Assembly (NCBI RefSeq): GCF_006345805.1
Contig: NW_021831998.1
Coordinates: 1 to 62,087, forward strand
DNA: 62,087 nt
Source of the DNA: Octopus sinensis
Taxonomy: Eukaryota
Reading direction: 5' to 3'
Under the pieces are notes generated by a model. That model searched no databases. It saw only the letters and a program-made list of their open reading frames with translations, and was not told the DNA's origin. Both the position numbers and the translations under genes were made by a program. Position 1 is the stretch's first letter. Each line of letters begins with the position of its first letter. This document shows, in pieces, positions 2,685-60,200 of the stretch.

Positions 2685-2970
<286 letters not shown>

Positions 2971-6069: not shown

Positions 6070-6099
<30 letters not shown>

Positions 6100-6105
<6 letters not shown>

Positions 6106-7510: not shown

Positions 7511-7541
<31 letters not shown>

Positions 7542-8430
7542 TACATACATACCAAAAAACGAAAATACCCTGTTGTTGATGTTGAAATTTCAATGAAGGA
7601 GCCTTGAATGTGTGTGTGTGTGTGCGCGCGCGCGTGTGTGAAGGAACGTGGAGTAGTGGTTAGGGTGCTTGCTCACAAGATGGTTAGATAATGAGTTCGA
7701 TTCCCAGACCTAGCAGCGCATTGTCTCCTTGAGCACAACATTACATTTTACGTTATTCTAGTTCATTCAACTGTAAATGAATAACTCTGTGGCGGAACAA
7801 CCACTCAGAGTTTCGTCATTCGAAAGCTAAAACAATGGAATGCGCATTGTGACCAGCGATGTATAACAACATTCAATAGTCTTGTCGATTCTGTGATGTG
7901 CGCGCGTGTGTGTATGTTTGAGAGTCTATCATTTAATCTTCTTACGCAATGCTAAGTGGATCGTACGTCAATACGTCAATACCTTTAATATGAATATAAA
8001 TAAATTAGTAAATAATGTCTGCGTCATCTGATATTGATTAATCAATACGCAGTTCTTATAATGTTTATGCTTCGTTAAGAAGATAGATTTAAACAAGTAA
8101 CATCTAACTGACAGTCATTTCTACTTAGAAGACAGACAAGATGTTGCAGAGGAATTCTCTTCAAGTTATTTTGTATATAAACTGGGGGTTTTTTGTATAA
8201 TGAATCCTTTCTACTGAAGGCACAAGGCCTGAAATTGGCGGAGGGTGCTTGTGTATCACATCGACACCAGTGTTTTACTGGTACGTAATTTATCGACCCC
8301 GAGAGGATGAAAGTCGACCTCGGCGGTATTTGAACTCAGAATGTAGCGATGGGCGAAATATTGCTAAGCATTTTGACTGGCGTGCTCACGATTCTACCAA
8401 CTCGCCAACTCGCCAACTTGTTTTGTTATA
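6100..8430 (+). repeat. Copy C of the triplicated block
   Basis: Colinear with copy B. Confidence 0.9.
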
Positions 8431-8457
8431 CTTTTATATATAAAAGGGCGTTTGTAC

Positions 8458-8489
<32 letters not shown>

Positions 8490-8493
8490 TTCG

Positions 8494-8539
<46 letters not shown>

Positions 8540-10059: not shown

Positions 10060-11545
10060 GAGAGGGGATCCCCAAAAGTAACCAGAAACGGTCTCTGTGG
10101 GGCAAGCCAGTTGTAGTTCAGTCTTTCGCTGCTAGAAGGCACTTGATGCGACGCTTAGGCACCAGTCTGCGACCAGCGGCGTTGGATTAAGTAGTAATGT
10201 CACGTGGTCTGTCTTTGTTTTGCAGTGTTTCTTCCCTGTTCGTCGATATTTGCGATGGCTGAAACGAAGGAACAACGTGTTTCTGTGAAATTTTGTTCTT
10301 TATTGGGGAAAGCGGCGAGCGAAAGAGTTGTCATGCTGCAAACAGTTTACAAGGACGCTGTCATGAGCAAATCACAAGTTTACGAGTTGTTTTCACGCTT
10401 TAGGAGTGGTCACTTGTCGCTTGAAAATCAACCTCGTTCGTGGCGACCATCGACCACCCGAACGAATGAAAACGTCACGAAAATACATGAACTGATCTTA
10501 GGGGACCGTCACTGAATGATTGATGAACTTGTTGATATGACTGATGTTTCTTGGAGATCTTGCCAACGAATTTTGAGCGAGGAATTGCGAATGAAAAGAG
10601 TTGCAGCCAAATGTGTGCCTCACTTGCTCACGTAAGAATAAAAGTAGTCACGACTAAATGGGTATCGTGAACTGAAACAACTGTTGGATGGTGATCCGGA
10701 CCTTTTTTCGAAGGTCATTACTGGTGGTGAAAGCTGGTGCTACGAATACAACCCGGATACGAAGCAGCAATCAAGTCAATTGAAGCATTCAATGTCACCA
10801 CGCTCCCCAAAGTGCATCAAGTGAAGTCCAGTGTCAAGATGATGCTGACTTGTTTCTTCGATGAGAAAGGAATTGTCCACACAGAATTTGTTCCTCCAGG
10901 TCAAACTATTAACCTAGCATTTTACTTGGAAGTTCTGAAACGTTTGCGAAATGTGGTGAGACGAAAACGCCCCAACTTGTGGAAAAGAGTGATGGTTTCA
11001 TCACGACGATGCGCCTGCGCACAAAACCTTAAGTGTAAGACAGTTTTTGACCGAATTGACGTGGTGATATTGAATGCTTCATTTGACTTGATTGTTGTTT
11101 TGTATCCGTGTCGTAGTCGTAGCATTAGCTTTCATCACCAGTGATGGCCTCCGAAAAAAGTCCGGATCACCAGCCAACAGTTTGTTTCTGTTCAGGATAC
11201 GCTTTCAGTCGTGACTGCTTTTATTCTTCCGTGAGCAAGTGAGACACAAATTTTGCTACAACGCTATTCATTCGCAATTCCTCACTCAAAATTCTTGTCC
11301 TGTCCACCCCGAATGCAAAGCGTCCTTAGAGGAAAACGTTTTACAGATGTGAAAGAGATGAAGAAAAGAAAAACGACGGAGGCGTTAAAAGGAGTTTAAA
11401 GATTGCTTTGAACAGTGGAAAACGCGTCTGGACCGATGCATTGCTTCAAATGGAGAATACTTTGAAGGCGATAAAAGTGTAAACATGTAAATCGAAGTGA
11501 ATAAAATAATATTGCAAAATTCCGGTTTCTTTTGGGTACCCCTGG
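10060..11545 (+). mobile_element. Mariner transposon with pseudogenised transposase and an internal inverted duplication
   Basis: Imperfect TIRs GGGGATCCCCAAAAGTAACCAGAA / TTCCGGTTTCTTTTGGGTACCCC; fragments EQRVSVKFC..LGK, PRSWRPST, CVPHLL, ITGGESW, FFDEKGIVHTEFVPPGQT, CIASNGEYFEG across frameshifts. Confidence 0.9.
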
Positions 11546-13300: not shown

Positions 13301-14600
13301 CCCTTGGTCTACCCAATATTTTTCTTTTAGTTAAATTTTATTTAAATTACCTCTATTTCTTAGCTATATTATATATGCCATCAGGCGAATAAAGAATTAC
13401 TGTTTCACAGAAATTTTAATTAAAAAAATACAGCTTACAGAATATATTATAAATTTTTAAGAATTACAAAAATACAGAATTACAGCTCTTCATGGCAGTG
13501 AATGCAGACAACATTTGAATGTTCTTGACAAACATGGATATTACAATTCTTACATGTAATACGAAACTTCCCGTCTTTTGTGGGGACCACACAAAGAACA
13601 TCTTCCTTTTTTCTTTGGTTGAGAAATCTCAAATGAGGTTGAATATCATCTTCTTTTTCTGTTTGGTTGAGAAACAGAACTAGAAGATTGTTTGTCGTGT
13701 TCTTGTTGAGCATTAACTCCAGCAAGTTCCTTTCCTAACTGAATTAGGCACTGTCTTCTTCTATCCTCGAAACTTTGCAAGTGAAGCTGTTAACAATAAT
13801 GTAAGCATTCACTGCCCTTATATCAATCATATTGTAGAATATAACCATAGGCCATCTTTGACTTTTTCTTTTGCAAGTGTATATCATTACCATCTTATCT
13901 AGGGTATTTGCTCCTCCTTTTGTTTTGTTGTAACGTGTAATAACTTCAAGTTTCTTCTCAGCACTTTTTGAATCAATTGAATGCTGGGAGTCATTGTACT
14001 CATAAGTGTGACAACATAATTTTTCTTGGGACAATAAGATAGAATCATAGAATCCTTTTGAAATCCAAATACTGTGCTGTTGATTTCTCTTTCTTTGCCA
14101 TTTGTGAAACCACTTGGAAGTTCAACCCTGTTCTTTCTAATTGTTCCAGCTAAAGTAGTTTTCTTGCTAAGCAGCTTTCAAGCCAATCCTAGACTTGTAA
14201 AAAAATTATCACAAGTTATATTGCGACCAGTATGTTCAAGTTCCTAGGTCTTCAACAACTCTTGAACCTTGATTTGTCTCTCTACTTTTTACTGGGTCTT
14301 TTCCAGTGTAGATTTGCATTTTCCAGGCATAAGACGTTTCACTGTCGCATATTGCCCAAATTTTAATTCCATATTTCCCTGGTGTTGAAATAATATATAC
14401 CCGGAATGGGCAGCGCCTTCTGAATGAAACTAATTGTTCATCAACTGTCATGCATGAACTTGGAGTATATCTATCTTGCAAATTCTGATTCCACATTTCA
14501 AATACTTCTCTTATGGGTTCCAATTTATCATCACTTCTCTTTTATCTTCTTTGCACTAGCATCCTCAAAACGCAATACTTGTAAAATCTGGTTTGTTCTT
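13301..14600 (-). mobile_element. piggyBac transposon, 5'-truncated, transposase pseudogene
   Basis: TTAA|CCC terminus at 13297-13303; minus-strand motifs MTVDEQLVSFRRRCPFRVYI..PGKYGIKIW, NITCDNFFTS, YNKTKGG..TLDKM, RWPMVIFYNMID and C-terminal Cys-rich CKNCNIHVCQEH..CIHC. Confidence 0.92.
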
Positions 14601-14609
14601 AGTAAATAA

Positions 14610-14905
14610 TGCAAAAATAGAAGACGCCGGTTGCATATTGATATTCCTTATCATTATGTGTGTGATAAAGGGATGACTGTTTGGAAACTACACGAGAGAT
14701 GAGAAGAGAAAATTACTTCAAGACTTTAGTTTCTAAGTCCAAAGAAAGAAGAAATATTTTATCTGAGATTGTTATTGTTACATGTTGAAGAAGCTCGTAT
14801 TTTTTTTTGTTTTTTTTGGTGGTCTTAAAATAGTTAATTGTGTGCGATGATCTTGAAACAGTTGACGGTGTACGATGTAAGTTATGATGAGAAAGCTGTT
14901 AATTT
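14610..14905 (+). pseudogene. Helitron RepHel coding fragment (paralogues 31775-32020 and 54030-54200)
   Basis: Degenerate translation DIPYHYVCDK...EEIFYLRLLLLHV...DLETVDGVR resembles the Helitron Rep-helicase linker. Confidence 0.7.
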
Positions 14906-15547
14906 TCATTTAGCACAAATTACAATAAACTTTATATAAGGCTGGGACCCTAATTATTCGGAATATTTTTGATTGTTTTTAAATGAAAAACTGCCAAGCC
15001 TTTACATAAGAAATTTATCAATGGTCTTTTTCCGTTGTTTTGATAAAATTATTTTTCACAACTTGTGTATAGTAATCCATACATGCATACAACAACACAC
15101 ACATACACGCACAGACACGCGCACATAGACACACATAGACACGCACGCACACACACACAACTATACATATGTATATGTATATATAAATGTATCATTTAGC
15201 GTTCTTATGCCATTTCAAGTTGTAAGACAATACCTTTTCATCCAGAGTACCTTCGTAAGGTGTATTGAATAGATAAACACTTCAGTTGAGCTATACAATA
15301 CCAGGTAATAATGATAAATCGATACGAAGATCATATAATGATTATACTTCATTAAGAGGATAAATGCAAACAAGTAACATCTCGTTCTTGACAGACATTT
15401 CTACCTAGAAAACAGACAGGATGCTGCAGAGGAATTGTTTTCAAATTATTTGTATGTAAACGATTTATTGTATAATTAATATATGTTTTTAATTACTTAA
15501 GGGCTTAGCCATCACCACTATGTGTATATATATATATATTATATATA

Positions 15548-15594
<47 letters not shown>

Positions 15595-20438: not shown

Positions 20439-22608
20439 TCTTCATTGCGCATGTGTGAATCAGAGTTGTGTTTGATACTGAAGCTGTAAGATGTGTTTTT
20501 GAAGCTGTCTTAAATGGAAGATTTTTGAAACTCAGCTGTAAGGTAAGATTTTTGGTGTCCAGTGGGGACCTGTTGTTTGCCGCAACTATTTTTCACAAAC
20601 AAGAAGTCCTCACTGGATTCTAGTCTACCTGGAGCTGAGTGAATTTTTTTTTTTTCACTTAATTGTGAAAGTTTTTGTATAGGTGGGCGCTTGAAAATAG
20701 TATTTGTCCAGGAATAACTCCGTGGGAATTTTTAGAAAAATTTCAACAATATTGTTCCTGTCAAGGTGTACCTATTAGAAGAAAATTGGAATGATTTTTT
20801 TAACTGTTTAACATTTGCGTTAAAATTTTGGCATGCAGTGCCGAGTGGCCTTTGCTGTATTTTGAACTGTTGCTCTCTCTTCATCTATCTTTTATTAAAA
20901 AAAAACTCTTTATTGAGCTGTTATTTTTCTCCTTCCTTTTTGTTTGAACTTTTTTCTCTTCCTTCATTTTCCTTAGTTATTTTGTATTTTAAAACTGTAT
21001 TTTTGGACTTTTTTAAAAAACATGGCAAATAACAATGGAAAGTTGGTGGAGTGGGAAATTACGCCACCCAAAAGTTGGTTAAAAGAACTTGAAAGTAAGA
21101 CGGTGGTTTTGAAGACCTACTCTAGGACCTTCGACGCCATTGCCGTTTTCATAAAGGATATAATCGAAAGAGAGCTGGCAGAATTTAAGCCAGCGATTAA
21201 GTTTATCTCTCGGGAGTCAAATACGCAACCATGTGGTTGCTGTTTGAATCCCCAGAAGTGGCTTGTGAATTTGCGAGCCAGCCCTGGAGGGCAATGAAAT
21301 TTTGTTTCTTCCAACTTATTGTGGGAAGAAGTTGACGAGAGCCTGGGTATGCGGCTTGCCACCCGGAGTTGAGCACGAAGGGATAGGAGATGCTATCCGC
21401 CGGGGTATGGGTGGCAGTAGCACCAAGCTCCTCAACGTAAATATTCTGCCTCCGGCTTACTGGGGGGAGTCAAAAATTGTTTTGACCCTATGGACCCAGT
21501 CAGCCGAAAGTCTGGTATTTCGAGACTTTTTGAGAATGGCCGGGTCTAGGTATCCGGTAATGCTTGAGGGACGCCCCCGCCCCAATTGTCATCTGTACCT
21601 GGAGCCTGGCCAAATAAATAAGAACTCTCCTCAAGGGCAAAGCAAAGTCCTGGAGCGGTTGACGGAGACCTCTGTAGAGGAAGGAATGAAGGCGGCCGAA
21701 GAGACGAAGGACTCCTCAAAGAAGAGCCGCAAAAGGAAGAAGGTGAGCAATCCTAAGGATGAGGGAGGAGAGGCGAATCTCCCGGTCACGGAAGAGACGC
21801 ACCCTCCCCCAGTCGAGAAGAAAAAAGAGGAAGAGGAGGAGAAACGGGACATTGCCTGCAGTCGGAAACATGGCGCCGGAGTGTCCCCGAGCCTCATCGG
21901 TTGTGTCACCGGCGGGGCGGAAATTGTGCCGCCAACGGTAGAATTGACCCCCTCGGACCCGGAGGACGAAGAACAGTTGGTCTTCTTTTATAGAGGTGGA
22001 GAGGTGGAAAAGGTGGTGGCAGAACACTACGAGGGAGTACCTTTGGCCTTCACACGGGATCCCGAATGGCCTCCACAGATAGCTGTGGAAGTGATAACGT
22101 TGCGCGTGTTACATAGGCTGGAGGGAATAAAAGAGAAATATCGCTCGTGGCCGGGTGACGCCAACTCGGAGCCCGTCTTGATTTTAAAGCAAGCATGGGT
22201 GATGGTGGAGTACATGGACACAAGCGATGATGAGGTGGAAAATTGACAAGAGGTTGAAAAGACTCAGTATTATAAAGTGCAAGAGGCTCAGCGCCTCATT
22301 TGTAATGGACTAGTGTTGATTGTATATTGAATATTTTATTGTATGTTATTGCATGTTATTATTTGTAATGGACTATTAAGTCCAATAATTGTAAAAACTG
22401 TCGTGAGAGGTTCAATACCGCATTTTGTTTTTGTTTTTTCTGTTGGAAAAAAAGAAGAATGATGTTTTAGAGAAGCAGAAAATCGGCGGACGTTTTTTTG
22501 TCTTCTCCCATCAATATCATCCTTGTTTCATCATTCACCTTATCAATGTATGTGTCCAGCCCGCAAGCCTCTCTTTCTAATGCCTTTATGGCAAACCTTA
22601 ATGAAATA
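20439..22608 (+). mobile_element. ORF1-only non-LTR retroelement, copy 1 (Tx1/L1-type gag, no RT or endonuclease)
   Basis: Flanked by direct repeat AAGTAGCTTGCTT (20426-20438 / 22609-22621); 5'UTR, frameshifted ORF 21022-22246, 3'UTR ending AAATAAA. Confidence 0.75.
21022..22246 (+). pseudogene. Gag-like ORF1 (RRM-like region, degenerate CCHC knuckle, charged low-complexity tail)
   Basis: MANNNGKLVEWEITPP..FLPTYCGKKLTRAWVCGLPP..RPNCHLYLEPGQINKNSP; homologous to 23326-24566; frameshifted around 21220-21300. Confidence 0.7.
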
Positions 22609-22632
22609 AAGTAGCTTGCTTACCAACCCATG

Positions 22633-24898
22633 AGTCTTTGAGACTTCCCATAAGTCTTTGTTGTCAGTGTACGCATGCGTCATTTTGATGTGCACTGAAA
22701 AAGACAGTCGGCAGTGTTTAACCTGCCAAAAAGAAGCTGCTGCAAGGTAAGACTTTTGTCTCTTGAGTCCAGTGGGTGTTGTTGTCTGTGGTTATATTTT
22801 TTACAAACAAGTAGTCCTCAGTGGATTCAGGATGTTGGTCTGCTTGCGGTTCAGCAATATTGGGAGCGTATCCTTCAACCAAAAGTTGTTCACTTTTTAA
22901 TAGTGCATGTTTTTACAACAACATTTACCATTTATTGGAAAGCTGTATTTCAAGTGTCCACATTAAGTGAAAATTTTTTTCTCGTTGTGAGAAGTATAGT
23001 TTGGTGGCGTATCCTGCCACCAAAAGTTGTTCGCTGTTTGTGAATAGTGTGCATTTTTACAACTACGTTTACCAATAATTGGAAAGCTGTATTTCAAGTG
23101 AATCAGTCCAGGTTCTAATTGGAATACCATAGGGTTTGGAGTACCTGAACGCCCAGGAGATTTTTTGCTGTGTTTTGTTGAACTATTGTTTTCTTCTTCT
23201 ATTGTGACTTTCTTATTGAACTGTTTGCTTTTTATCTTCTTCCCTTTTGCTTCCTTTTGATTTCTCACTTTTCTTTTTGAAATTTGTGAACTATTTTGGG
23301 GACTTTTTACTTTTTATTTTAAAACATGGCAAAAAATACGGATAAGATTGTAGAGTGGGAGATTGTCCCACCTAAGGAGTGGTTCAGACAGCAAGAGGGA
23401 AGGACGGTGGTGTTGAGAACGTATTCGAAGGTTCTCGACACCATTGCCGTCATCTCCAAGCAGATGAATGAGCAGGAGTTGGTGGAACATATGCTATCCA
23501 TTAAGTATATCTCTAGGGGCGTCAAATATGCAACGGTGTGGTTGCTGTTTGACACTCCAGAGAAAACTCGCAGTTTTGCGAGCCAGCCCTTTGAGGGTAA
23601 AGAAATTTTGTTTCTTCCCACTTATTGTGGGAAAAAATTGATGAAGGCTTGGGTTTGTGGTTTGCCACCCTGAATTGAACCTCAATGGATAGAGGATACT
23701 ATCCGTCGGGGTCTGGGTAGCAGCGGAGCCAGGCTCCTCAATGTGAAAATTCTTCCTACGTATGATTGGGTTGGGTCAAAAGCTGTTTTGACCCTGTGGG
23801 CCCAATCAGCCATGAATCTGGTTATGCCAGATTTTTTGAAAATGGCCGGGTGCAGGTACCTGGTGATTCTTGGGGTCGCCCCTTTCCCAGGTGTCATCGG
23901 TGCCTGGAGCCAAGCCATATAAAGAAAAGCTGTCCTCGGGAATAAAGCAAAGTCCTGGAGATCTCTGTAGAAGGAACGAAGACAGCCGAGGAGACGGAGG
24001 ACTCCTCAAAGAAGGGCCGCTAGAGGAAGAAGGTGAGCAACAATGGGTGCTCAACAAAGGATCCTAGAGATGAGGGAGGCGAGGCGAATCTCTCGGTCAC
24101 GGAGGAGACGCACCCTCCCTTAGTTGAGAGGAAAAAATAGGAAGAGGAAGAGAAATGGGACATTGCTGGCAGTCGGTGACATAGAACCAAAATGTCCCGG
24201 AACCTTGCCGGTAGGGGTTGTGCCTCCGGCAGGGTAAGAGACGCCGTTGGGAGCAATTGTGCCCCCAGCGGTAGAATTGACTACCTCGAACTCAGAGGAA
24301 GAGGAACTATTGGTCTTCTTCTACAGAGGAGGAGAGATTGAAGAGGTGTTGGAAAAGCACCATAAGGGAGTACCTTTAACCTTCACACAGGATCCCGAAT
24401 GCCCTCCGTAGATAGCTGTGGAGCTCATAACGTTGCCCGTGACGTATATGCTGCAGGGACTGAATGAGGAATAACGCTTGTGGCCGGGCGGATCCCGCCT
24501 TGGTCTTGAATGAGGCGTGGGGGATGGCGGAGTATATGGGCACAAGCGATGTTGGTGAGGAATAGTGACATGTGGTTGAAAAGACTCAGTGTTATAATGT
24601 TTATTGTATAATGTTTAATGATTATTGCATGTTATTGTGTTTAAGAGGCTTAACGCCCCAATTCTTAAATGGACTATTAGTCCAAAAATTGTAAAACTGA
24701 AGTAAGAGGTTCATTACCTCGTTTTGTCTTTTTCTGTTAAAAAAAACGAGAGAATTATGTTTTAGAGAAGCAAAAACAGGCGGGCGTTTTTTGTCTTCTC
24801 CTATTAATATCATCCTTTTCATCATTCACCTCGTCAATGTCTTTGTCCAGCCCGCAAGCTACTCTATATCATGCCTTTATGGCAAAATTTTTTAAATA
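22633..24898 (+). mobile_element. ORF1-only non-LTR retroelement, copy 2
   Basis: Flanked by ~24-bp imperfect direct repeat AAGTAGCTTGCTTACCAACC-CATG (22609-22632) / AAGTAGCTTGCTCACCAAACACATG (24899-24923); same organisation as copy 1; ~140-bp tandem repeat in the 5'UTR (22855-23100). Confidence 0.75.
23326..24566 (+). pseudogene. Gag-like ORF1 with intact CX2CX4HX4C zinc knuckle
   Basis: MAKNTDKIVEWEIVPP..FLPTYCGKKLMKAWVCGLPP*; 23892-23933 reads CHRCLEPSHIKKSC; several stops and frameshifts. Confidence 0.72.
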
Positions 24899-25294
24899 AA
24901 GTAGCTTGCTCACCAAACACATGGTTCCGGATTCAGTCCCACCGCATGGCACCTTGGGCAAGTATCTTCTACTATAGCCTCGGGCCGAACAAAGCCTTGT
25001 GAGTGGATTTGGTAGACGGAAACGGAAAGAAAGCACGTCGTATATATGTATATATATATATATGTGTGTGTATTTGTGTGTGTGTGTATATGTTTGTGTG
25101 TCTGTGTTTGTCCCACCAACCTCGCTTGACAACCGATGCTGGTGTGTTTACGTCTCCGTAACTTAGCGGTTCGGCAAAAGACCGATAGAATAATTATTAG
25201 GCGTACAAAGAATAAGTCCTGGGGTCGATTTGCTCGACTAAAGGCGGTCCTCCAGCATGGCCGCAGTCAAATTACTGAATCAAGTAAAAGAGAC
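24899..25294 (+). mobile_element. Body of octopus-type tRNA-derived SINE
   Basis: B-box-like GGATTCAGTCCC, CCTTGGGCAAG core, internal (TG)n, 3' CCAGCATGGCCGCAGTCAAAT..AAGTAAAAGAG. Confidence 0.9.
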
Positions 25295-29290: not shown

Positions 29291-31040
29291 AGAGTGAAGT
29301 GCGTGCGAATGGGACCGCCCCCCTCCCCCCATTACCACCCTAATCAACTCCGCTGCGCAAGTTTTGTTCTCACACCACTTATCTCAACTTCTCCCCAATT
29401 AAGTCCTTCGGCAACGAGCAACAGATGACGGGAGCAAGAACTGTATGATGTTATAAGCCCTTAGTCTGGATCCTGCACATGGGTGACGCAGGCAATACGG
29501 CCGACTCGATGTTACCCTGGGACTGCACATCGATTCGTGTTCTACCTGCTTGACCAGGTGGACCTTTTAAGGACTAGCACCGCCTGCCTCAGCTGAAGAG
29601 AGGCCTATGAAATGTGGTCTAAAAGACGCCAATCCTTTTTCGCCTGGCCAGGAAATCGCACCTGGTAGGCCATTCCACACTGTACTCGATGATTAAAAGG
29701 AAAATCCTCTCATTTTTGCTACCTGCAACATACGAACCTTGATACACCATGATGACCACGTTGGGGCCACGCTCATCGCCTCTGAACTCAAACGATACAA
29801 TGTGGATATCACTGCACTCAGCGAAACAAGATTTCCTGATGAATGCTTTCTCACTGGGATACATATACTTCTGGAAAGGCCTTCCTCAATGCAATAATAG
29901 AATTCATGGTGTTGGATTTACTGTCCGTTCGTCATTACTGGAGAACATCTCTTCGATTGCAACCGATATAAGTGAAAGGCTGATGACTTTCCGAATTCTC
30001 CTCAGTAACAAAGTGCACGCCACTATCTTCAGTGTCTATTCCCCAATATTAGAGACTATTAAAGACACGAAAGATACCTTCTACGAGTCTCTTAACTCGG
30101 TTAAGAGAAGGTTACGTCGCACAGACAAAGGTATTCTTGGAGATTTCAGTGATAGAGTCGGTTTCAATGTAAACATCTGGCCCAGAGATCTCGGTTCTCA
30201 TGGGATGGGCAAAATGAATACCAATGGTCTTCACCTTTTGCGCCTGTGTGCCGAGCACAATCTCGTGATTACGAAGACCATTTTTCAGCAGCCCAATAAA
30301 TACAAGTTCTACTGGAGACATCTTCGTTCCAAGATGTGGCATCTCCTCGATTACGTGAGCGTTCGTGAACATGATCAGAAAGTTGTCCTCCATATCAAAT
30401 ATATGCGTGATGCAGAATGTTGGACCGATCACCGCATGTATGTGTCCTCAGATCCGCCCTCCTGCCACGAAAAGCAAAGTGTTTCCCATACTCAATGTGG
30501 CCTGTTTTTCCAGTACAACGAAACAAGATAAGCTTCAAGAAAACCTCGCTACTGCCTTCCCACTTCTTCCAGCTCTTTCAGTTCCAAAAGAGCTCCATCG
30601 CAATATGGAAAAAACATTGAGAATTATATTGAACAAATCGAGGTCGAACAGAATGAATTCAATTCACTCTGGGACTCTGCCATGTCCATCATTTGACAAA
30701 CTACTGAATCCACTCTTGGAAAAACCCACATGAAGAACCTTGATTTGTTTAATGAATCTGCAGACATCATCCAAACTCTTTTGTAGACGAAGAACCATGC
30801 TCATAACGCCCACCTCACAAATTCTTGTACCTTAGCCTCAAAGTGGTTTCTGAAGCACAAAATGTCTGGTGGCTCCGCAACTCCGAAAAGATCCAATGTT
30901 TGGCTGACGAAAATAAATCTTGCGAATTCTACAACTCGATTAAACATATCTTCGGTCCTTCGCACTGCCCGATTGCACCTGCCCGTGCCGCTGACGGCAA
31001 TACTTTAATTAAAGAAAAAGAAAAGATCTTTGCGCAATAG
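29290..31040 (+). mobile_element. RTE-clade LINE fragment (APE endonuclease region)
   Basis: GYIYFWKG..GVGF..ISERLM..VYSP..ILGDF..GLHLLRLCAEHNLVIT..WRHLRSKMWHLLDY..DAECWTDHR. Confidence 0.9.
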
Positions 31041-32020
31041 ACTTCTGCTTACAAATTCAGAAACCAACAACAAATATTGAACGTGAAACTTTACAGAAGC
31101 TCAGCTGTTCATTTAAATAACGGTGCGTATGATTCTGGTTTTCAGGCTGGACACACGCGCTTATTCTCCTCGCTTCATTCCAAGAATTTCCAAGAAACAT
31201 GCGAGAACGGTATTACGAGGCAATGGCTTTAGTAAGTTAACATGGCTCGTCTGATATTTTCATTTTATAACATTTAATTCAAATTGACCAGAAATTAAGG
31301 ATAACTTATTTCATGATCTGGGAGCAAGGTATTTCAAACTGAAACTAAAATAACTTTTGAATGATGTTAAAACGAGACACGTTTTCGATGGAGTTGCTTA
31401 CTCATTTGCCCATCCATGAGTATCAGAAGAAACGATCACCATGTGGCCATATCTTGATAATATTACATGCAGATGACCCGTTGAGAATAGATCAGATTGT
31501 TTGCGATGAAGGAAGATGGACAGTGAAGTTGTACAGGATGAAGTAAAACGGCATTTTCATGGGAGACATGTGAGTGCACCTGGAGTGATGTCGCGCTTGC
31601 ACGAAAACAGAATACATAACAAATCCCATGCTATTATACTGGCTGCCAGTGCATTTTCAACAAGAATCCGTCTTTTTCAGAGAAGGTAATGAGAACGAAG
31701 CGTTAGAGAGAGACAGAGCTGCCCGTCGTAACACACCGCTGCCATCATGGTTTGTCCTTAGTAAATGATACAGAAATACAAGACGCCGGTTGCATATTGA
31801 TATTCCTTATCATTATGTGTGTGACAAAGGGATGACTGTTTGGAAACTACACGAGAGATGAGTAGAGAGAATTATTTCAAGACTTTAGTTTCCAAGTCCA
31901 AAGCAAGAAGAAATATTTTATCTGAGATTGTTATTGTCATATTTTGAAGAAGCTCGCACTTTTTGATGATCTTAAAACAGCTGATGGTGTACGATATAAG
32001 TTATGATGAAATAGCTGTCA
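31040..32020 (+). pseudogene. Degenerate Helitron RepHel coding region (Rep motifs and linker)
   Basis: PRNMRERYYEAMALV (upstream of Rep motif 1), HEYQKKRSPCGHILIIL (cf. EFQKRGLPHAHIL, motif 2), HNKSHAII.LPVH, QESVFFREGNENEALER, EEIFYLRLLL; motif 2 repeated at ~34020-34090. Confidence 0.8.
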
Positions 32021-32578
32021 TTGTTTTAAAAAAACACAAGTGGAAATATACTTTATAAATGAGTGCGACCCATTTTTTCAACTCACAGCGGGAAATGTTA
32101 CATTTAAGAATTATTGGAATTAAAAAAAAAAAATTTTAACTCCAAAGTCTTTAGATACGAAATTTATCAATGGTTGCTTTAATTGTTTTGACAAAATTTT
32201 TGGTATTTTTCGCTTGTGTGTAGTACGTACGTGTAAGCAAACACACATACATTCACATGCACGCACGCACATAGACACACAACCATACATATGTATATAT
32301 ATATATATATATAGCAACGAATTGCCTCACCACACACCGAATTTAGAAATAGCAGTCAAAGAGTTATAGCTATTCTTTCTACTAAAAGGGAGATCTCAGT
32401 AAAAACACAGCACTTGAAAGGCAAACACAGACAGGTAAGAGAGAATGAAATAACGGCAATCTATCATACAATTTTAAGTCACCTACGGACGTACGTTTCG
32501 AAATTAAGTTTTAGGAAAGCATAAGAATTAGATAATTATATCTTACCCAACTTCTTTTCTGTGGATGAAAGTTTGTGT

Positions 32579-32669
32579 CCTACGCTGATGAGAAAAGAAG
32601 TTGGGTAAGATATAATTATCTAATTCTTATGCTTTCCTAAAACGTAATTTCGAAACGTACGTCCGTAGG
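32579..32669 (+). ncRNA. Type I hammerhead ribozyme, copy 1
   Basis: CCTACG-CTGATGA-GAAA..(~60-nt stem II region)..TTTC-GAAA-CGTACG-TC-CGTAGG; predicted cut after C32663. Confidence 0.82.
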
Positions 32670-33160
32670 TGACTTAAAATTGTATGATAGATTGCCGTCA
32701 TTTCATTCTCTCTTACCTGTCTGTGTTTGCCTTTCAAGTGCTGTGTTTTTACTGAGATCTCCCTTTTAGTAGAAAGAATAGCTATAACTCTTTGACTGCT
32801 ATTTCTAAATTCGGTGTGTGGTGAGGCAATTTGTTGCTAAACCCTTAATTGCTTAGTATTACTTAAACTTTCCTCGAATGAGGCTTTTACATGCCGAAAT
32901 CTACTTGGTTTAATTAATAATTATTCCAAATTAATTAATTTCACCCTATATTGTTACTGATAACCATATTTCATCTCAGTAATGACCACAGCATCTTGTC
33001 TTGGCTACACGCGGGTGGGAAGGGGCTGGTGACACAAACTTTCATTCACACTTTGAATTTGGTGGTACTGGTAACGGCTTTAGCTCGCTCTGATACTGAG
33101 TTGAGATGATGCCTTCTAGTTTCTCGAAATTTAATATACAATTATTCATAATTGTAGTGT

Positions 33161-33251
33161 CCTACGCTGATGAGAAAAGAAGTTGGGTAAGATATAATTA
33201 TCTAATTCTTATGCTTTCCTAAAACTTAATTTCGAAACGTACGTCCGTAGG
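33161..33251 (+). ncRNA. Type I hammerhead ribozyme, copy 2
   Basis: Same architecture; predicted cut after C33245. Confidence 0.82.
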
Positions 33252-33538
33252 TGACTTAAAATTATATGATAGATTGCCGTCATTTCATTCTCTCTTACCT
33301 GTCTGTGTTTGCCTTTCAAGTGCTGTGTTTTTACTGAGATCTCCCTTTTAGTAGAAAGAATAGCTATAACTCTTTGACTGCTATTTCTAAATTCGGTGTG
33401 TGGTGAGGCAATTCGTTGCTAAACCCTTAATTGCTTAGTATTACTTAAACTTTCCTCGAATGAGGCTTTTACATGCCGAAATCTACTTGGTGTAATTAAT
33501 AATTATTCTAAATTAATTAATTTCACCCTATATTGTTA

Positions 33539-33604
<66 letters not shown>

Positions 33605-33972
33605 GTATGTATGTATGTATCATCTGGTGATCTTATGCCATCTCAAGCGTTAAGTCAATACCTTTTCATCCGGAATATCTTTATAAGGTGTATTGAATAG
33701 ATACAAACACTTCACTTGAGGAATAAAATGCCAGCTAATAGCGATAAATCGATACGAAGTTCATATAATGATTATCCTTCATCAAGAAGATAGATTTGAA
33801 GTAGTAACATCTCGTTCTTGACAGCCATTTCTACCTAGAAAACAGACGGGATGTTGAGGAGGAATAGTTTTTTCAAATTATTTGTATGTAAGCGTCTCAT
33901 TTTATCTTTAATATATCATGTTTTTGATTATATAATATTTTAGCCATCACAACTGAGACTCCACTTATATAA

Positions 33973-34003
<31 letters not shown>

Positions 34004-34266
34004 TGTATGTATGATTTTAGAGTTGTTGCTCATTTATTCACCACTGAGTATCACAAGGAACGATTGTCATGTGGCCATATCTTAATAATGTTACATGCAG
34101 ACGACCCGTTGACACAACAAGATCTCTCAATGCAGAGCAACGTTTGCATAACCAAATACCTGCCAACATGGACGACTACGTTTCGTGGAAACAATTGTAG
34201 GGTTTACAAATAAATGTTCTTCTATACTCCTTCCTCTTGACTCCGACTTATTCAATTATACATCTA

Positions 34267-35493
34267 CACAGACATGAGAGAAGTAAATAGACGTCCCATA
34301 TAAAATATTGCTCTATGTTTATCCTAACTAGGAAATGTTTATATTTTTTATTAATTGACATTTTTGTGTCATGTTTTATACGAGACCGTTTAATCATGTC
34401 ATGTACAAAAAATGCCTTGGAACTGTCTGAATTTCAAAGAGGCCTATTGAGGGTCATTCCGAAGGTAGACATAGCGTAAAATCACAGAAGAACTTGGGCT
34501 CCCGCTTTCTACGGTTGATATAGTGAATATGCAATTCACCAGATAGAGGAAGGAATCCACTTCACTTCGCGAAGATTAACCAGAGCCTTCTGACAAGACC
34601 CTTCTCTTTGCTAAGAGAATTGTGGGGGATAATTCTCGTTGCTAGGCCTCTACCATAGCAGAATAAGTTATGTTAGTCCCAGAACAGCTATCAGGTATCT
34701 CCACAAACTTGGTTACTATGGCAGAGCAACAAGAAGGAAACCACTTCTTCGAGCAGCCAACACCAAGCGGATAAAAGATTGGGCCAGTGAGATGGTAGAG
34801 AGGCCACTAGAATTTTGGGACACTGCAATAGTCTCTGATGAGTCTAGATTGCTGTATTTCCTGACAGTGGTCGAGTGTCGGTCTGGAGACTCTGTGATCA
34901 AAACTTTAATGTGAAAAGATTCCGGCCAAGAAACACGGCAGCTATTCTGTGATGATCTGGGGAGCAATTTGGAGCAATGATTGATCAGAGTTGGTGGAGT
35001 GTGAGAGAAAGATAAACTCAGAAAAATTTATGTTCACATTGCAGAAAGGACACCTTCCAATCTTCTTCAGTTGTGAAATGATCAAAGAAGACTATTTATG
35101 AAAGATAGGGCTCCTTGTCACACAGCTAAAATGAGATGAGAATGGCATTAAAAAGCTTCCATGACCAAGCCAGTCACCAGATATGAACTCTAATGAACAT
35201 TTCTGGGACATAATGGACAAGACACTTCATAAAAATAACAAGAAAGCATCATCAAAGCCAGAACTTTTGAGATTACTGCATGAAACTTGGCAAGAAATTT
35301 TGCAAGAGAATATTCGTCATCTAATCAGTAAGATGCCTAATAGGGGCTTTGCATTGAAAAATGCATAGGGCATGTCTACTAAGTAGTAGATATTCACATT
35401 ATGAAAATTATTAAATAATTTGTATGTATTATTTCAGATTTGAATAAATTTCAATGATTGTAAAGGTGTCTATTTACTTCTGTTATGTCTGTG
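34267..35493 (+). mobile_element. Tc1-family transposon, transposase pseudogene
   Basis: TA|CACAGACATGAGAGAAGTAAATAGAC ... GTCTATTTACTTCTGTTATGTCTGTG|TA TIRs; RRKPLL, IVSDESR and QSPDMNSNEHFW motifs. Confidence 0.92.
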
Positions 35494-35669
35494 TATGTAT
35501 GTAAGTATGTATATATGTATCTATGTATATACATATATATGTGTAAAAAAAACAAAGTTAGTGGTTGAAAATAAACAACATAAATGGTCACACAACTTCA
35601 AATCATCCCCATAAATTCATACCGTAGAATGATGGATCCTCAGAACGGGAAACTTCTCTGATGAAGATT

Positions 35670-35755
35670 TTTTTCCTGATGAAGGGGCCGCTGCCGGTTT
35701 GGTGTTTTAATGTGTAATGGATCGTGGCAGTGGCTCTTGAAACGGCCGTAGACGT
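35670..35755 (+). ncRNA. Hammerhead ribozyme motif in a Penelope-like remnant (~35545-35930)
   Basis: CTGATGA-AGGGGCCGCTGCC..GGCAGTGGCTCTT-GAAA-CGGCCG-TA; 13-bp stem II, palindromic stem III, weak stem I. Confidence 0.6.
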
Positions 35756-35969
35756 GGATTTATTCTTACATTATTTTGGATTCCTTTTTCTTTGGGACTT
35801 GACGCCGGATGTATCCCGGATTCACTTAAAATTTAACAGTCTACCTAGTATATTATTTTCAATCGCCTCGCTATATACATTTATATTTTCTTCATATGTT
35901 TTTCTTCATACACTTTTTACAGTTTTTCACACGTTTTTTTTTTATATGTACATATACATGTACATTCTT

Positions 35970-36490
35970 ATAACTTCGGGCTTGGTGTCACAAGAAGTTT
36001 TGTTCGTCTCTCGCTCAACTGCACCTCACACTTAATAATCAAGGGGTTGCAGTCTGGAGAGTAAGGTGGCCAGACGTTAGCGATGATGTGGTTGCAGAAA
36101 TTGTCTGACAGTAATAGGGGTCTCTCGGCAGCCAACCTCTTGACCCAGGACAGCACTACCTCCTCCAGGCCTTCGTGTTGAATCAGAGGCCGTGTGAGAA
36201 GATGACTGGAGGTATAACTTCGCAATCACTAATGATCACTCCAAAAACCATGATGTTCACAGTATGTTTGATTTTTATCTCTCTTGGTACATGTCCTCAG
36301 ATTGCACTGTCCTCAGATTGACACCCAAACATTCTTAAATGTTCGTATTGGAACTTCCGGTGCGAATGCCAAGCAGTACGGTATGTCATTTCCAAATTTC
36401 TGGCAGCGTGAATCGCGTCATTGTGTTGTTTTTCTTACAGACGGTGCCCAACTGTCTCTACTATACTGTGTAGTCGACAAAATACAAAAA
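35970..36490 (-). mobile_element. Deleted Tc1/mariner (maT/DD37D-like) remnant
   Basis: LEEVVLSWVKR..WPPYSPDCNPL on the minus strand. Confidence 0.7.
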
Positions 36491-36676
36491 CAAAGAATGC
36501 AGCTACGCGAAATTTAAAATATAAAATGGCAACAATTTACATATTGCACCCTCTCCCTCTCCCTCTCTATCCCTCTTTCTCTCTCCCGTTCTTTCTCTCT
36601 CTCTCGCTGTCTCTCTCTGTTCTCTCTCTCTCTATATATATATGTGTGTATACACACGCACACACACACGCACGCA

Positions 36677-36707
<31 letters not shown>

Positions 36708-36708
36708 T

Positions 36709-36768
<60 letters not shown>

Positions 36769-38055
36769 GCATGAATATATCCTTGGGTGTATTTCATTTG
36801 AGAGGTTTTTATTCATATTTTATTCTCTCGGATATAGATGAATATATGCTGTCTACTATTTTATTAGATCAGTTAATGTCTAGAGAATGTGTTGTGATAC
36901 ATTGCTTCGTTGTGATTCTTTACAGTATGGGTTGTGTAAAATGTAAATATTTTATTGTCTGGTGATTATACAAGGAATGTTTTGTATGCAGAGAATAGGA
37001 TTATTTGAGATGTACGATTAAATTGAAAGACAAAAAGATCTTGATATTATTGTTCTATTCTTTTCCTTGATATCTTTATCTGTCATTCCCAAGTTGATTG
37101 TGGTCAGGTCGCTGTAAAGTCTCATGTTTCATGCATACTATTATTACTTCTTATCCATTCTTGTCTTCAAATGATGGTACATGTTCCAGTGAAGATAGAT
37201 TCCTTTCCAGGAAAAAAATTGCTCTTGGCAAGGAATGAATCACAAGAAACTATGTTGTCAACTATCTCATTATATTTTTACTTGTATAGTCTACGTTCCG
37301 CATACAGAAGGAAGTCTTACGAAATATTCCATCGTATTATTTTAAACCAATGCCTATTCAGTGAGTCATTTTCACACAAAAATTATTTTCTATGATCTGG
37401 TTAAATACATATTGGGGTATATTTTCTAACGAATATCTGATAAGACTAAAACATGTCCGGAGTTATCCCCAGACTTACTAAAATTTAGTAATCAATTTCA
37501 ATTTCGGAATTCTCTCCCTTCCATCTCTTGACAATGGTTATTATTCATTCAGGTGGGGTTTTTCTCTTCAATACCTGCGTAATTTCGATCAATTAAAAAA
37601 CTTTTTGGTTCACTACTCTTTGCCCTGCTCCTTATATACGTAATACTTTCACAATCTTTTCTGAAGTGTCCAGAATTTTCTCTTCCAAGAAATACTGATG
37701 CTTCTTGTCTTAATTGAAATAGCATTTCCTTTTCTTTCTTCGTCTTCTCCTTTTTCCATTTCTGTTCCTCTCTCTTTATCTCACTCTCACTCCTCCTCTC
37801 CATCTCCTTTTGTTTATCTTTCTATCCCTCTCCAATTTATCGCTCTCCCTCATTATTTCAATGGATAATTTTATGGTGATGTAGTGGTGGTCATCGTCGT
37901 ATTTGATATCGAATTATGCTTGTAGCACTTCTCTTTCCTATTCATTTCATCTTTATTCTTTGTAAATGAATGTTAAACGTGAATATGAAATATGAAATAT
38001 TTTACAAAATAAATTTTCGTTGCAGTTCTCTTCTACATCTCATTGACACTTGGAA

Positions 38056-50395
<12,340 letters not shown>

Positions 50396-53450: not shown

Positions 53451-54376
53451 TTGAATTCTGGTTGAAAAAGATTTATTGATTTGTTTGTGGCTAATGTTTT
53501 TAAGATGAAACTGCCGCTCACAAAGGCGCCTTTTCAAATGAAATATTTCCTTATCCTCAAGTCCGCTAGTCCTCCTGTATTTATCACAATACGATCACCT
53601 TTATTTCATCTTGCACCTTATTGAATCAGAATCCTATGAGAATATAACTGTATCATAATGTTCTAATTCTTCAAAAGCTGACTCTTTAAGGTCCTTTGGC
53701 TCTGAAGAATATTCATTATCTTTGGTTACTTCAGCAAGGTTCCTTCTTATGAATTAACGTATATCCATATATTGTACTGGGTCTACAATAAAGAATTAAC
53801 AGCTTGTATGTAAATATTGTTGTTATATAAAATAATGACCAAGACGTTTGCCATTTCAGCACCTTGAAACATAAATTCTCTAACGTTGTTGTATCAACAC
53901 TAAAGAGAAACGAGCAGTATCATCTCATTATCATTATTAAATGAATTATTATTCTTTTCATTTCAAACATTTGGTATCTAAACCTTCCGACAGTTATTTG
54001 AATAAAGCTGCTTGTCTTGCAATTCCTCTACCAGCATGGTTTGTCCTTAGCCAATGATATAAAAATACAAGACACCTTTTACATATTGATATTTTTATCA
54101 TTATGTGTTTGGCAAAGAAGTGACGCTTTGGAACTATACGAGAGACGGGAAAAGGAAATTACTTAAGGATTCTATTTTCAATGACTGTTTGGAAACTACA
54201 CAAGTAATTCATTATTTTTAGCTCCTTGCCGAAAATGTCACACTTAAGAGATACTGGAAATATTCTGTTCTTTTAAATAAAAACTACATAGTCTTCACGA
54301 AACTTATCTTTAGGAAGTTTCTTCCACTGTTTTGATAAAGTTGTTAACATTTTTCACATACATACACACTCATACC

Positions 54377-54469
<93 letters not shown>

Positions 54470-54470
<1 letters not shown>

Positions 54471-55002
54471 GGTGAGAAAGTTGGTGTTTGAAAGCACGTG
54501 GTTGAATATATAAAAATAGTAAAAAGTGAAAAAACTACAGAAGGCTTGTTTTAAAAGGTTAAAAATATATATTTGAGTCAATATGTCTGAAGAATGTTAT
54601 AAATTTTTGAAGAAATGACCGGTTTCGCGTTCAGCTTTTCAAATTTCTTACATCGTTATGTTTACGTTGAGAAGAGTTCCAGATAAGGGGAGGTAATAAG
54701 TGATTTCTTCCGGTGTAAGGGAGATAATCGCTTAAATTTCTTGCCTTTCTTTTGGAGTGAATTTCTCTGTATAAGTATGTTGGAATGGTTAAGTTTGGGC
54801 TTGTATTTTTCAATGAAGAATGTTTCCTTGTTTAGTCAAATTTGTGTAAGAAATTTGAAAAGCTGAACGCGAAACCGGTCATTTCTTCAAAAACTATGTC
54901 ATTGTATGAAAAAAATTTATAACATTCTTCAGACATATTGACTCAAATATATATTTTTTAACCTTTTAAACAAGCTTCTGTAGTTTTTTTCACTTTTTAC
55001 TA

Positions 55003-55005
<3 letters not shown>
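54470..55005. repeat. Inverted-repeat cassette, probably Penelope pLTR-derived, in (TA)n
   Basis: ~54512-54652 is the reverse complement of ~54845-55005; contains the hammerhead half-motif GAAACCGGTC. Confidence 0.7.
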
Positions 55006-55089
<84 letters not shown>

Positions 55090-55465
55090 GTGTGTTTGTG
55101 TGTGTGTGTGTGTGTGTGTATGTGTGTATTTATATATTATATATATACACATATATGTATATATATAGTTTCCTATTTCTCTCGTGGATATGATAACAGA
55201 CTACGAATAGTCTGCTACTATCATACTCCCGTATTTTTTCTCTCCTTCTTTCTCTTCTTTTCCTACACCTTCTTCTTCTTCTTCTTCTTCTTCTTCTCTT
55301 CTCTTCTTCTTCTTCTTCTTCTTCTGCTCTTCTTCTTCGCCGTCTCCTTCTAAAGTTACTACTGCTTAAACAATGCTGCTTAAAACTTCAGTACCAACAT
55401 CCCTCATATTAGATATTTCTTCAGACCTGCTACTACCTACCTGCCGAGCCTTCACAGAAGTAAAT

Positions 55466-57280: not shown

Positions 57281-60200
57281 CGGTTTGAACCGGTTTGTCG
57301 GCACCGTATTACATCTTTGTCGGCATACTCCTTGATCTCTATCGGCACCGCCTTTGATCTCTGTCGGCACCATCTTTGATCTCTGACATTCCTGACATTC
57401 CTGACATTCTGACATTCCAGACATTCCTGACATTCCTGACTTTCCTAACATTCCAGACATTCCAGACATCCCTGACATTCCTGACATTTGAACCGGTTTG
57501 ATCAGGCTTGATCCAGTTTGAACAGTTTTGATCCGATTTCAAGCGGTTTGATCCGTTTTATCCGGTTTGAACCGGTTTAATCCGGTTTGAACCGGTTTGT
57601 CAGCACCGTATTTGATCTTTGTCGGCACACTCCTTGATCTCTATCGGCACCGTCTTTGATCTCTGTCGGCACCATCTTTGATCTCACATTCCTCACATTC
57701 CTGACATTCCTTACATTCCAGACATTCCTTACATTCCAGACATTCCTGACATTCCAGACATTCCAGACATTCCTGACATTCCTGACATTCCAAATATTCC
57801 TTACATTCCTGACATTCCTGACATTCCAGACATTCCTGACATTCCTGACATTCCTGACTTTCCTGACATTCCAGACATTCCAGACATCCCTGACATTCCT
57901 GACATTTGAACCGGTTTGATCAGGCATGATCCAGTTTGAAACGTTTTGATCCGGTTTCAACCGGTTTGATCCGGTTTTATCCGGTTTGAACCGTTTTGAT
58001 CCGGTCTGTACCGGTTTGTCGGCACCATATTTGATCTTTGTCGGCACACTCCTTGATCTCTATCGGCACCGTCTTTGATCTGTCGGCACCATCTTTGATC
58101 TCTGACATTCCTCACATTCCAAACATTCCTGACATTCCAGACATTCCTGACATTCCTTACATTCCTGACATTCCTTGCATTCCTGACATTCCTGACATTC
58201 CAGATATTCCAGACATTCCTGACATTCCAGACATTCCAGACATTCCTACATTCCAGACATTCCTGACATCCCTGACATTCCAGACATTCCTGACTTCCAG
58301 ACATTCCTGACATTTCAACAGGTTTGGATCGGTTTAATCGAGTTTGAACCGGTTTGATTCGGATTTATCCGGTTTGACCCGCATTGAACCGGTTTGAACC
58401 GGTTTGATCTGGTTTGAACGGTTTGTCGGAACCGTATTTGATCTTTGTCGGCACACTCCTTGATCTCTATCGGTACCGTTTTTGATATCAGTCGGCACTG
58501 ACTTTCATCTCTGACATTCCTCACATTCCAAACATTCCTGACATTCCAGACATTCCTGACATTCCTGACATTCCTGACATTCCTGACTTTCCTGACATTC
58601 CAGACATTCCAGACATTCCTGACATTCCAGACATTCCTGACATCCCTGACATTCCAGACATTCCTGACATTCCAGACATTCCAGACACTCCTGACATTCC
58701 TGAATTTCCTGACATTCCAGACATTCCAGACATCCCTGACATTCCTGACATTTGAACCGGTTTGATCAGGCTTGATCCAGTTTGAAACGTTTTGATCCGG
58801 TTTGAACCGGTTTGATCCGATTTGAACTGGTTTGATCCTGTTTCAACCGGTTCGATCCGGTTTGATCCGGTTTGATCCGGTTTGAACCGGTTTGTCGGCA
58901 CCGTATTTGATCTTTGTCGGCACACTCCTTGATCTCTATCGGCACCGTCTTTGATCTCTGTCGGCACCATCTTTGATCTCTGACATTCCAGACATTCCTG
59001 ACATTCCAGACATTCCTGACATTCCAAACATTCCTGACATTCCTGACATTCCTGACTCTCCTGACATTCCAGACATTCCTGACATTCCTGACATTCCAAA
59101 CTTTCCTTAGATTCCTGACATTCCTGACACTCCAGACATTCCAGACATTCCTGACATTCCTGACATTCCAGACATTCCAGACATCCCTGACATTCCTGAC
59201 ATTTGATCGGGTTTGATCAGGCTTGATCCAGTTTGAACCGTTTTGATCCGGTTTCAACCGGTTTTATCCGGTTTGAACCGGTTTGATCGGTTTTGACTGG
59301 TTTGTCGGCACCGTATTTGATCTTGTCGGCACACTCCTTGATCTCTATCGGCACTGTCTTTGATGTCTGTCGGCACCATCTTTGATCTCTGACATTCCTC
59401 ACATTCCTGACATTCCTGACATTCCAGACATTCCTGACATTCCTGACATTCCTGACATTCCTTACATTCCTGACATTCCTTATATTCCTGACATTCCTGA
59501 CATTTCAGACATTCCAGACATTCCTGACATTCCAGACATTCCTGACATTCCAGACATTCCTGACATTCCAGACATTCCTGACTTTCCTGACATTCCAGAC
59601 ATCCCTGACATACCTGACATTTGAACGGTTTGATCAGGCTTGATCCGGTTTGAACTGTTTTGATCCGTTTTCAACCGGTTTGATCCGGTGTGATCCGTTT
59701 TGATCCGGTTTGAACCGGTTTGATCCGGTTTGAACCGGTTTGTCGGCACCGTATTTGATCTTGTCGGCACACTCCTTGATCTCTATCGGCACCGTCTTTG
59801 ATCTCTTTCGGCACCATCTTTGATCTCTGACATTCCTCATATTCCTGACATTCCTGACATTCCAGACATTCCTGACATTCCTGACATTCCAGACATTCCA
59901 GACATTCCTTAAATTCCTGACATTCTTACTTTCCAGATATTCCAGACATTCCTGACATTCCAGACATTCCAGACATTCCTGACATTCCAGACATTCCTAA
60001 CATCCCTGACATTCCAGACATTCCTGACATTTCAGACATTCCTGTCATTCCAGACATTCCTGACATTACTGACATTCCTGACTTTCCTGACATTCCAGAC
60101 ATTCCAGACATCCCTGACATTCCTGACATTTGAACCGGTTTGATCAGGCTTGATCCAGTTTGAACCGTTTTGATCCGTTTTGAACCAGTTTGATCCGATT

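Follow-up and report, generated by a model that had tools for sequence, protein, structure and literature searches.

A 582-nt, ORF-less hammerhead unit in a Penelope-like insertion of Octopus sinensis, probably an animal non-LTR retrozyme

The DNA analysed here, called the window throughout, is a stretch of 62,087 nt from Octopus sinensis (RefSeq assembly GCF_006345805.1, contig NW_021831998.1, positions 1 to 62,087), and consists of eukaryotic, microsatellite-rich DNA with remains of LINEs and DNA transposons. A LINE on the minus strand (41458-46389) retains a 656-aa reverse transcriptase (RT) frame at 42222-44189, with relatives 35-57% identical among the 120 matches listed, and C-terminal zf-RVT frames, and is broken up by stop codons and an (ATC)n tract. 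Remains of mariner/piggyBac-type transposases, a LINE endonuclease-like frame that we take to be RTE-like, and two inverted-repeat pairs lie at 10568-11294, 10731-11144, 13744-14121, 29743-30531 and 54358-55133. The plus-strand stretch 46663-47325, which matches a PAN domain (Pfam E 4e-6), is a probable host exon. At the far end, 57281-62087 is a higher-order tandem array in which blocks of ~400-450 bp are built of 9-bp and 10-bp units; one minus-strand frame in it encodes Ser-Gly-Met repeats, with a collagen-like Pfam match that is probably a compositional artefact. Old local duplications with 72-91% identity are also present (14589-16832/31748-37875; 1-8516; 21000-24916), and the second copy of the first pair, 31748-37875, has gained several inserts, including Tc1-like remains near 34400-35400 (recognized by eye) and the retrozyme-like element that is the subject of this report.

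The insert (Table 1) is made up of an upstream 249-nt inverted arm and of a 582-nt unit repeated head to tail in 1.67 copies (32575-33544). Self-comparison of the window bears out an earlier note on this DNA, which had described two 388-bp direct repeats with five mismatches around a 194-bp spacer, and an inverted partial repeat upstream: the direct repeats are identical at 383 of 388 positions (mismatches at 32644, 32682, 32832, 32910 and 32927), and the arm is a near-perfect reverse copy of part of the unit, in which the ribozyme is incomplete (CUGAUG and the 5' strand of stem I are missing). The same note called the spacer unique, which holds within the window but not beyond it, where high-depth contigs cover the whole unit in all four sequencing runs that we aligned (X1, X2, X5 and X7). 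The arm is joined to repeat 1 through a 19-nt inverted piece of the spacer (the next best match to this piece in the window is 14/19), and the last 5 nt of the piece coincide with the start of repeat 1 (32575-32579), a microhomology. As repeat 1 opens with 5 bp of junction microhomology, its start is a truncation point and no LTR end; the repeats are a partial tandem, i.e. a pseudo-LTR (pLTR). Both outer ends of the insert halt at TA and then run into (TA)n and, with regard to a target-site duplication, both ends are embedded in that tract. A paralogous segment (14589-15135 plus 15162-15573, 72% and 80% identical to 31748-32281 plus 33590-34012) crosses a short TA tract with no insert, in line with the earlier remark that the paralogous site is empty. 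The GC content of 32001-34000 is 0.32, i.e. below 50%. The differences among the arm, copy 1 and copy 2 are each private to one segment (three in copy 1, one certain and one likely in copy 2, one in the arm), and seven minority alleles of run X1 are common to all three segments; thus the three segments stem from a single insertion event and from one template lineage.

Table 1. Features of the insert and of its empty paralogous site (positions in the window)
Feature	Coordinates	Strand	Evidence
Left half of the (TA)n target; its final TA is also the element's left end	32294..32313		sequence
Inverted arm, unit 33173-33421 reversed; outer end is the putative second RT start site	32312..32560	-	247/249 to copy 2, 246/249 to copy 1
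Junction piece, inverted spacer 33031-33049	32561..32579	-	18/19 match
Repeat 1, upstream unit copy, 5'-truncated (pseudo-LTR)	32575..32962	+	window self-comparison
Hammerhead 1, type I, predicted cut after 32663	32579..32669	+	motif and pairing
Predicted 582-nt cut-to-cut monomer	32664..33245	+	linear MFE -154.8 kcal/mol, z -5.78; 64% paired as circle
Long rod, repeat 32684-32758 pairing with spacer 32973-33045	32684..33045	+	helix probabilities 0.73-1.0
Spacer (194 bp), rest of the unit; high-copy, non-coding, structured	32963..33156	+	contigs, domain search, pair-conserving variation
Two spacer hairpins, 33053-33134 and 33137-33156	33053..33156	+	fold; second with two compensatory changes in a relative
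Repeat 2, 3' part of the complete unit 32963-33544; end is the putative main RT start site	33157..33544	+	self-comparison
Hammerhead 2, predicted cut after 33245	33161..33251	+	motif and pairing
Right half of the (TA)n target	33543..33601		sequence
Empty paralogous site, short TA tract	15160..15190		window self-comparison

Each repeat carries a full type I hammerhead core with the 6-bp stem I, palindromic stem III and ~60-nt stem II that had been noticed earlier, namely stem I CCUACG/CGUAGG, CUGAUGA, stem II, GAAA, the palindrome ACGUACGU and GUC. Stem II is closed by 4 bp (GAAA/UUUC) and is 60 nt in total, which leaves an extension of 52 nt, and C17, after which cleavage is predicted, stands at 32663 and at 33245. 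The assignment is based on the motif and a check of its pairing, not on Rfam models. The core pattern occurs twice in the window and not once in any of 100 shuffles, and a relaxed scan of both strands of the window returned no hammerhead beyond these two. Rfam gave no match at gathering score over the whole window, the hammerheads going undetected, and among its 19 weak matches at E<=10 in 32200-33700 there is no hammerhead; a miRNA model placed on the inverted-repeat hairpin scores best. An isolated ribozyme folds no better than its shuffles (z -0.70 to -1.34). Helix III consists of two pairs and a palindromic tetraloop in each ribozyme, the form described for dimer-dependent hammerheads (PMC4209133, PMC3088659; axolotl HHR_Amex1, PMC7229834). 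The bases that face each other just beyond stem I (33159/33253) are G/G here and A/A in most of the family depth, and such a paired change in an unpaired loop may be the mark of a tertiary contact. By eye, the 3' end of stem I at 33251 is splice donor-like, and acceptor-like sites stand 100 nt downstream (33351) and just before the ribozyme (33157), which recalls the 5'-UTR introns of Penelope-like elements (PLEs); the X7 contigs contain no joint that skips between these sites.

As the earlier note had stated, the element contains no ORF of its own: the longest ATG-started frame on the circularised unit is 38 aa, no PLE domain was detected in the six frames of the spacer and unit, and the longest open frame of the spacer, at 56 aa, has no relative among 36 candidate proteins, itself a weak test. 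No PLE ORF was found among the 31 scanned of the 55 window ORFs of at least 120 aa, and the ORF combining a telomerase-like RT with a GIY-YIG endonuclease, by which an autonomous endonuclease-bearing (EN+) PLE is recognized, is absent.

Words of the unit occur in 20 of the 24 sequencing runs listed (4 organisms, 8 studies), with a best share of 0.59 and a share below 0.2 in one of the 20. The four runs were aligned at 85% likeness to the unit rotated to 32800-33381, with both spacer borders internal, and gave 2826 (X1), 1634 (X2), 1035 (X5) and 27 (X7) contigs, which cover all 30 bins in each run. The lowest summed depth in full bins is 14017 in X1, 44442 in X2 and 2858 in X5, figures that are not copy numbers, and the single contigs listed reach down to a depth of 10. 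In three whole-genome-sized runs, from three organisms, the entire unit is tiled by high-depth contigs, and wrap-round joints lead from 33375-33381 to 32800 in X1, X2 and X5; no contig among the aligned runs spans the whole unit. Several related organisms contain the unit as a high-copy ('highly repeated') family with a conserved fold. Summed depth is higher near 32820-32959 and lower in the ribozyme; contig depth cannot rank parts of the unit, and the gradient would fit 5' truncation. None of the listed runs is recorded as RNA (X7 is guessed to be), and the contigs show neither ends nor strand. One X7 contig ends at the site of the insert's right end (loose end 32947) and continues into (TA)n. 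A scan of metagenomes returned a single locus with a 21-nt match, which we rejected as chance, there being no CUGAUGA upstream in the adjoining stretch, and viral contigs gave no match to the unit. In the literature searched there was no description of this retrozyme family, or of such an element in work on cephalopod retrozymes; supplements of PMC7229834 and of the preprint of Li et al. (bioRxiv 10.64898/2026.07.22.740005) may show similar ribozymes. On octopus hammerheads nothing was relevant by title bar PMC8557442, and on long-stem-II hammerheads there was nothing relevant.

The fold of the cut-to-cut monomer (Table 1) was equalled by none of 100 shuffles, and it is strong because the spacer pairs with the repeat: the repeat alone (z -0.27), the spacer alone (z -1.25) and the minus strand (z -1.85) fold far more weakly than the repeat/spacer rod at 32690-33035 (z -6.07). 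Twelve background windows ranged from z -4.65 to +2.42, one of them coming close to the unit (z-scores of parts and background are from 30 and 10 shuffles). Family substitutions were scored against the circular fold for 40 of the 71 entries, with indels ignored. For one X7 contig (record 27), 20 of its 25 substitutions, assigned by depth, break 3 confident pairs, create 3 and include 2 compensated pairs, against 8.9, 0.39 and 0.14 expected from 20000 position shuffles (P 0.002, 0.005 and 0.009); the compensatory changes, C-G to U-A at 33139/33154 and U-A to C-G at 33143/33150, both come from this single contig. Twenty X1-majority alleles, a set that excludes 33264, where the monomer already has that allele, break 3 pairs, create 2 and compensate none, against 5.9, 0.31 and 0.09 (P 0.08, 0.03 and 1.0), and weakly back a conserved structure. 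In the circular fold the GAUG of the core pairs with the CGUC of the cut site at a probability of 0.84, which could be a possible lock on the ribozyme. Both putative RT start sites lie in the branched distal domain of the rod; they are 123 nt apart, and each is just 3' of a small hairpin of that domain.

A precursor spanning 32570-33262 is predicted to adopt the double-hammerhead fold at a cost of 3.3 kcal/mol over its minimum, whereas folding it as two single ribozymes costs 16.3, and the cross-wise stems I form unconstrained at 0.96 and 0.94. The competing pairings leave stem II poorly populated (0.00 and 0.20) and the dimer helix III at 0.26. When the precursor is extended to 33544, the costs become 4.8 (double) vs 11.9 (single) kcal/mol, and the outer stem I falls to 0.07. 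With the inverted arm included, the active fold costs 123 kcal/mol, and a read-through transcript of the locus would be a 249-bp hairpin and no substrate for the ribozyme. The present copy is therefore probably no source of monomers unless transcription starts inside the element, since a transcript started upstream is predicted to fold the arm onto a ribozyme.

We consider it probable that this is an abundant, non-autonomous and non-coding non-LTR retrozyme of ~582 nt that is mobilised in trans by an endonuclease-bearing PLE. In a head-to-tail transcript, the computed unit fold would join the two ends of the unit as stem I, and neighbouring ribozyme halves would in this way compose a double hammerhead whose helix III is an 8-bp palindrome, a fold which a lone monomer is predicted to be unable to form. 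Double cleavage would free the 582-nt monomer, and a host ligase would close it into a stable circle, by analogy with the retrozymes of coral, mussel and axolotl, for which circular RNAs are reported (PMC7229834). The junctions suggest that the PLE protein would cut the (TA)n tract and use each of the target ends to prime cDNA, at two internal start sites on the RNA (unit 33544 and 33421, each UA followed by ACC or AACC). One cDNA would be 970 nt long, crossing two cut sites in 1.67 turns of the unit; the other would run for 249 nt across one cut site and then, skipping 124 nt that hold two hairpins, go on in the spacer. The 5-nt microhomology would join the two cDNAs. The earlier proposal of a non-autonomous hammerhead element with a 582-nt monomer, a dimer-type ribozyme and a Penelope RT is upheld by this analysis in its main lines, with the provisos that the repeats are a partial tandem, not LTRs, and that self-cleavage, circles and the RT partner are predicted.

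A bolder form of this reading, which we hold to be possible though rather doubtful, is that the unit is a viroid-like circular RNA parasite, 582 nt long, of an animal genome, whose rod fold acts as an on/off switch. The double hammerhead would then form in multimers only and be locked in the circle, the 52-nt arm of stem II would replace the usual loop-loop contact, possibly serving as a handle for the PLE protein, and twin rolling reverse transcription would start from the two stem-loops. If so, the insert would be the record of a single event in which a PLE copied a retrozyme circle, and the Rfam models used would be blind to a population of long-arm ribozymes.

The alternative that survives best, although we think it unlikely, is that the same PLE-mobilised family is copied with linear head-to-tail transcripts, still uncleaved, as templates; no stable circle would be made, and the hammerhead would be a weak or protein-dependent inheritance from a pLTR. 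It gains weight from the Poseidon system as reported in PMC11167929, where insertion proceeds from unprocessed RNA and ribozyme mutants are without effect, cleavage being dispensable and protein-requiring, and from the preprint of Li et al., which reports that one of nine predicted Xenopus dimers cleaved in vitro and that the other eight failed. By arithmetic from the coordinates, a multimer of ~2.9 units would explain cDNA running over the cut sites equally well, and the weak population of stem II points the same way. On the other hand, the core seems to be conserved in the family, in that none of the same 40 of 71 substitution entries changes CUGAUGA, GAAA, the palindrome or GUC, although two loose-end consensus sequences carry variants in stem I or the core. 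Moreover, the fold closes the ends of the unit just as a double hammerhead requires, and the circles of coral, mussel and axolotl retrozymes set a precedent (PMC7229834).

It is improbable that an autonomous PLE with long structured UTRs gave rise to the insert by truncation to its 3' end or by a rare internal deletion, with no independent small family behind it; a spacer that is just a Penelope 3' end was one of the outcomes that would have overturned the earlier note. The architecture does match a canonical PLE insert such as Pen2a_Av (PMC3846280), and a further 202 loose ends exist beyond the 24 listed. X7 record 27, a contig of 1330 nt and depth 109, matches 32896-33184 and exits the unit inside stem II at 33184 into ~1 kb of other sequence, where it may be a truncated copy, an insertion into the ribozyme or a partner element. 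Against this stand the high-depth contigs that bridge both borders of the spacer (repeat-end border, X7 record 27; ribozyme border, X2 record 15 at 33123-33259 and X7 record 28 at 33022-33324) and its middle (X5 record 18, 32996-33101, depth 451). Apart from three unassigned X7 cases, record 27 among them, the 24 loose ends listed point to unit variants, (TA)n or inversion junctions. The six frames hold no PLE domain, the 56-aa spacer frame matched none of 36 candidate proteins, a weak test, and 1-nt indels occur in the spacer among family contigs. The tiling of the whole unit in three runs, the missing PLE protein match and a spacer held in RNA structure with the repeat argue for a family in its own right, whose origin may itself be an ancient PLE deletion, as Li et al. 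(bioRxiv 10.64898/2026.07.22.740005) propose. The near-identical direct repeats around a short interior would suggest a miniature LTR element, either an LTR retrozyme or a TRIM, whose 388-bp repeats are true LTRs and which a Gypsy-type integrase moves; this reading is largely refuted and has next to no likelihood, given a ribozyme of type I and not type III, a repeat that starts at a microhomology junction, the inverted arm, ends that enter (TA)n with no 4-bp duplication visible, and inversion joints of other copies at other places (32800/33318 in X2, 32910/33128 in X1, 33022 in X7).

Mobilisation of animal retrozymes by PLEs, and the circle as template, are proposed and not demonstrated in the papers cited here. 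The present copy joins the full PLE insertion signature to an ORF-less, structure-conserved hammerhead unit with two mapped putative starts. As the deduced cDNAs would cross a cut site three times, the unit could go straight into the in vitro PLE assay already published, with a circle compared against a linear multimer, and it also suits asking whether dimers can cleave with a long stem II arm.

Several known systems bear comparison with the insert. Plant LTR retrozymes likewise have two ribozyme-bearing direct repeats and a structured monomer on the 600-nt scale, but are described with a type III ribozyme, true LTRs, PBS/PPT and a 4-bp target-site duplication; the type I topology here, and a repeat start that is a junction, rule out a retrozyme of the plant type. 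Chlamys derivatives such as MRC1 are, as described in PMC8557442, likewise ORF-less dependants of PLEs with pLTRs and head-to-tail inserts in microsatellites, but they are algal, and most Chlamys elements are there reported to be without hammerheads. For EN+ PLEs, PMC3846280 and PMC8557442 describe a pair of direct pLTRs next to which lies a shorter copy in inverse orientation, joins at microhomologies, and targets that are AT-rich or (TA)n, and purified Poseidon protein is reported to cut AT-rich DNA, extend both strands and start at internal stem-loops (PMC11167929). The insert shares with these elements (Pen2a_Av, PMC3846280; PMC8557442; Poseidon PAc, PMC11167929) the pLTR tandem, inverted copy, microhomology, AT-rich target, two internal RT start sites and hammerhead in the pLTR; unlike them, it has no RT/GIY-YIG ORF, and its start sites are 123 nt apart, as against the 30-40 nt tail described for them. 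While the min-HHR of PMC4209133 is given a helix II of 7-8 bp, a helix I of 4-5 bp and an extra base at 9/10.1, the geometry of stems I and II here is canonical, with G10.1 directly after the core.

The closest likeness is to metazoan non-LTR retrozymes as described in PMC7229834 and by Li, Clavereau & Pollet (2026), with which the unit has in common the type I hammerhead with a 6-bp stem I and a 4-bp stem II base, head-to-tail non-coding units of low GC, a highly self-paired monomer and, in axolotl HHR_Amex1 (PMC7229834), the dimer-type palindromic helix III; two consecutive complete ribozymes lie 582 nt apart in head-to-tail units, as expected of a non-LTR retrozyme. A PLE is likewise the proposed mobiliser there, the preprint of July 2026 arguing that animal non-LTR retrozymes of 51-972 bp are non-autonomous PLE derivatives. 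With 582 nt the unit is above the 150-450 bp of Cervera & de la Pena 2020 (PMC7229834) and inside the range of the preprint. It differs from the retrozymes so described in its 52-nt extension of stem II, where they have a small loop, and in being a dispersed insert of 1.67 units with an inverted arm, where they form satellite arrays; further, core and cut site are paired to each other in its predicted circle, while the ribozyme is reported to be free in most metazoan circles (PMC7229834). By all the features with a clear outcome the element is an animal non-LTR retrozyme, its cleavage and circularity being predictions from folding. It is a fresh example of retrozymes already in print (2020 and the 2026 preprint) and no new class, to which it adds the long stem II arm, a fold predicted to pre-organise the double hammerhead, and junctions that read as twin PLE priming on a template of more than one unit.
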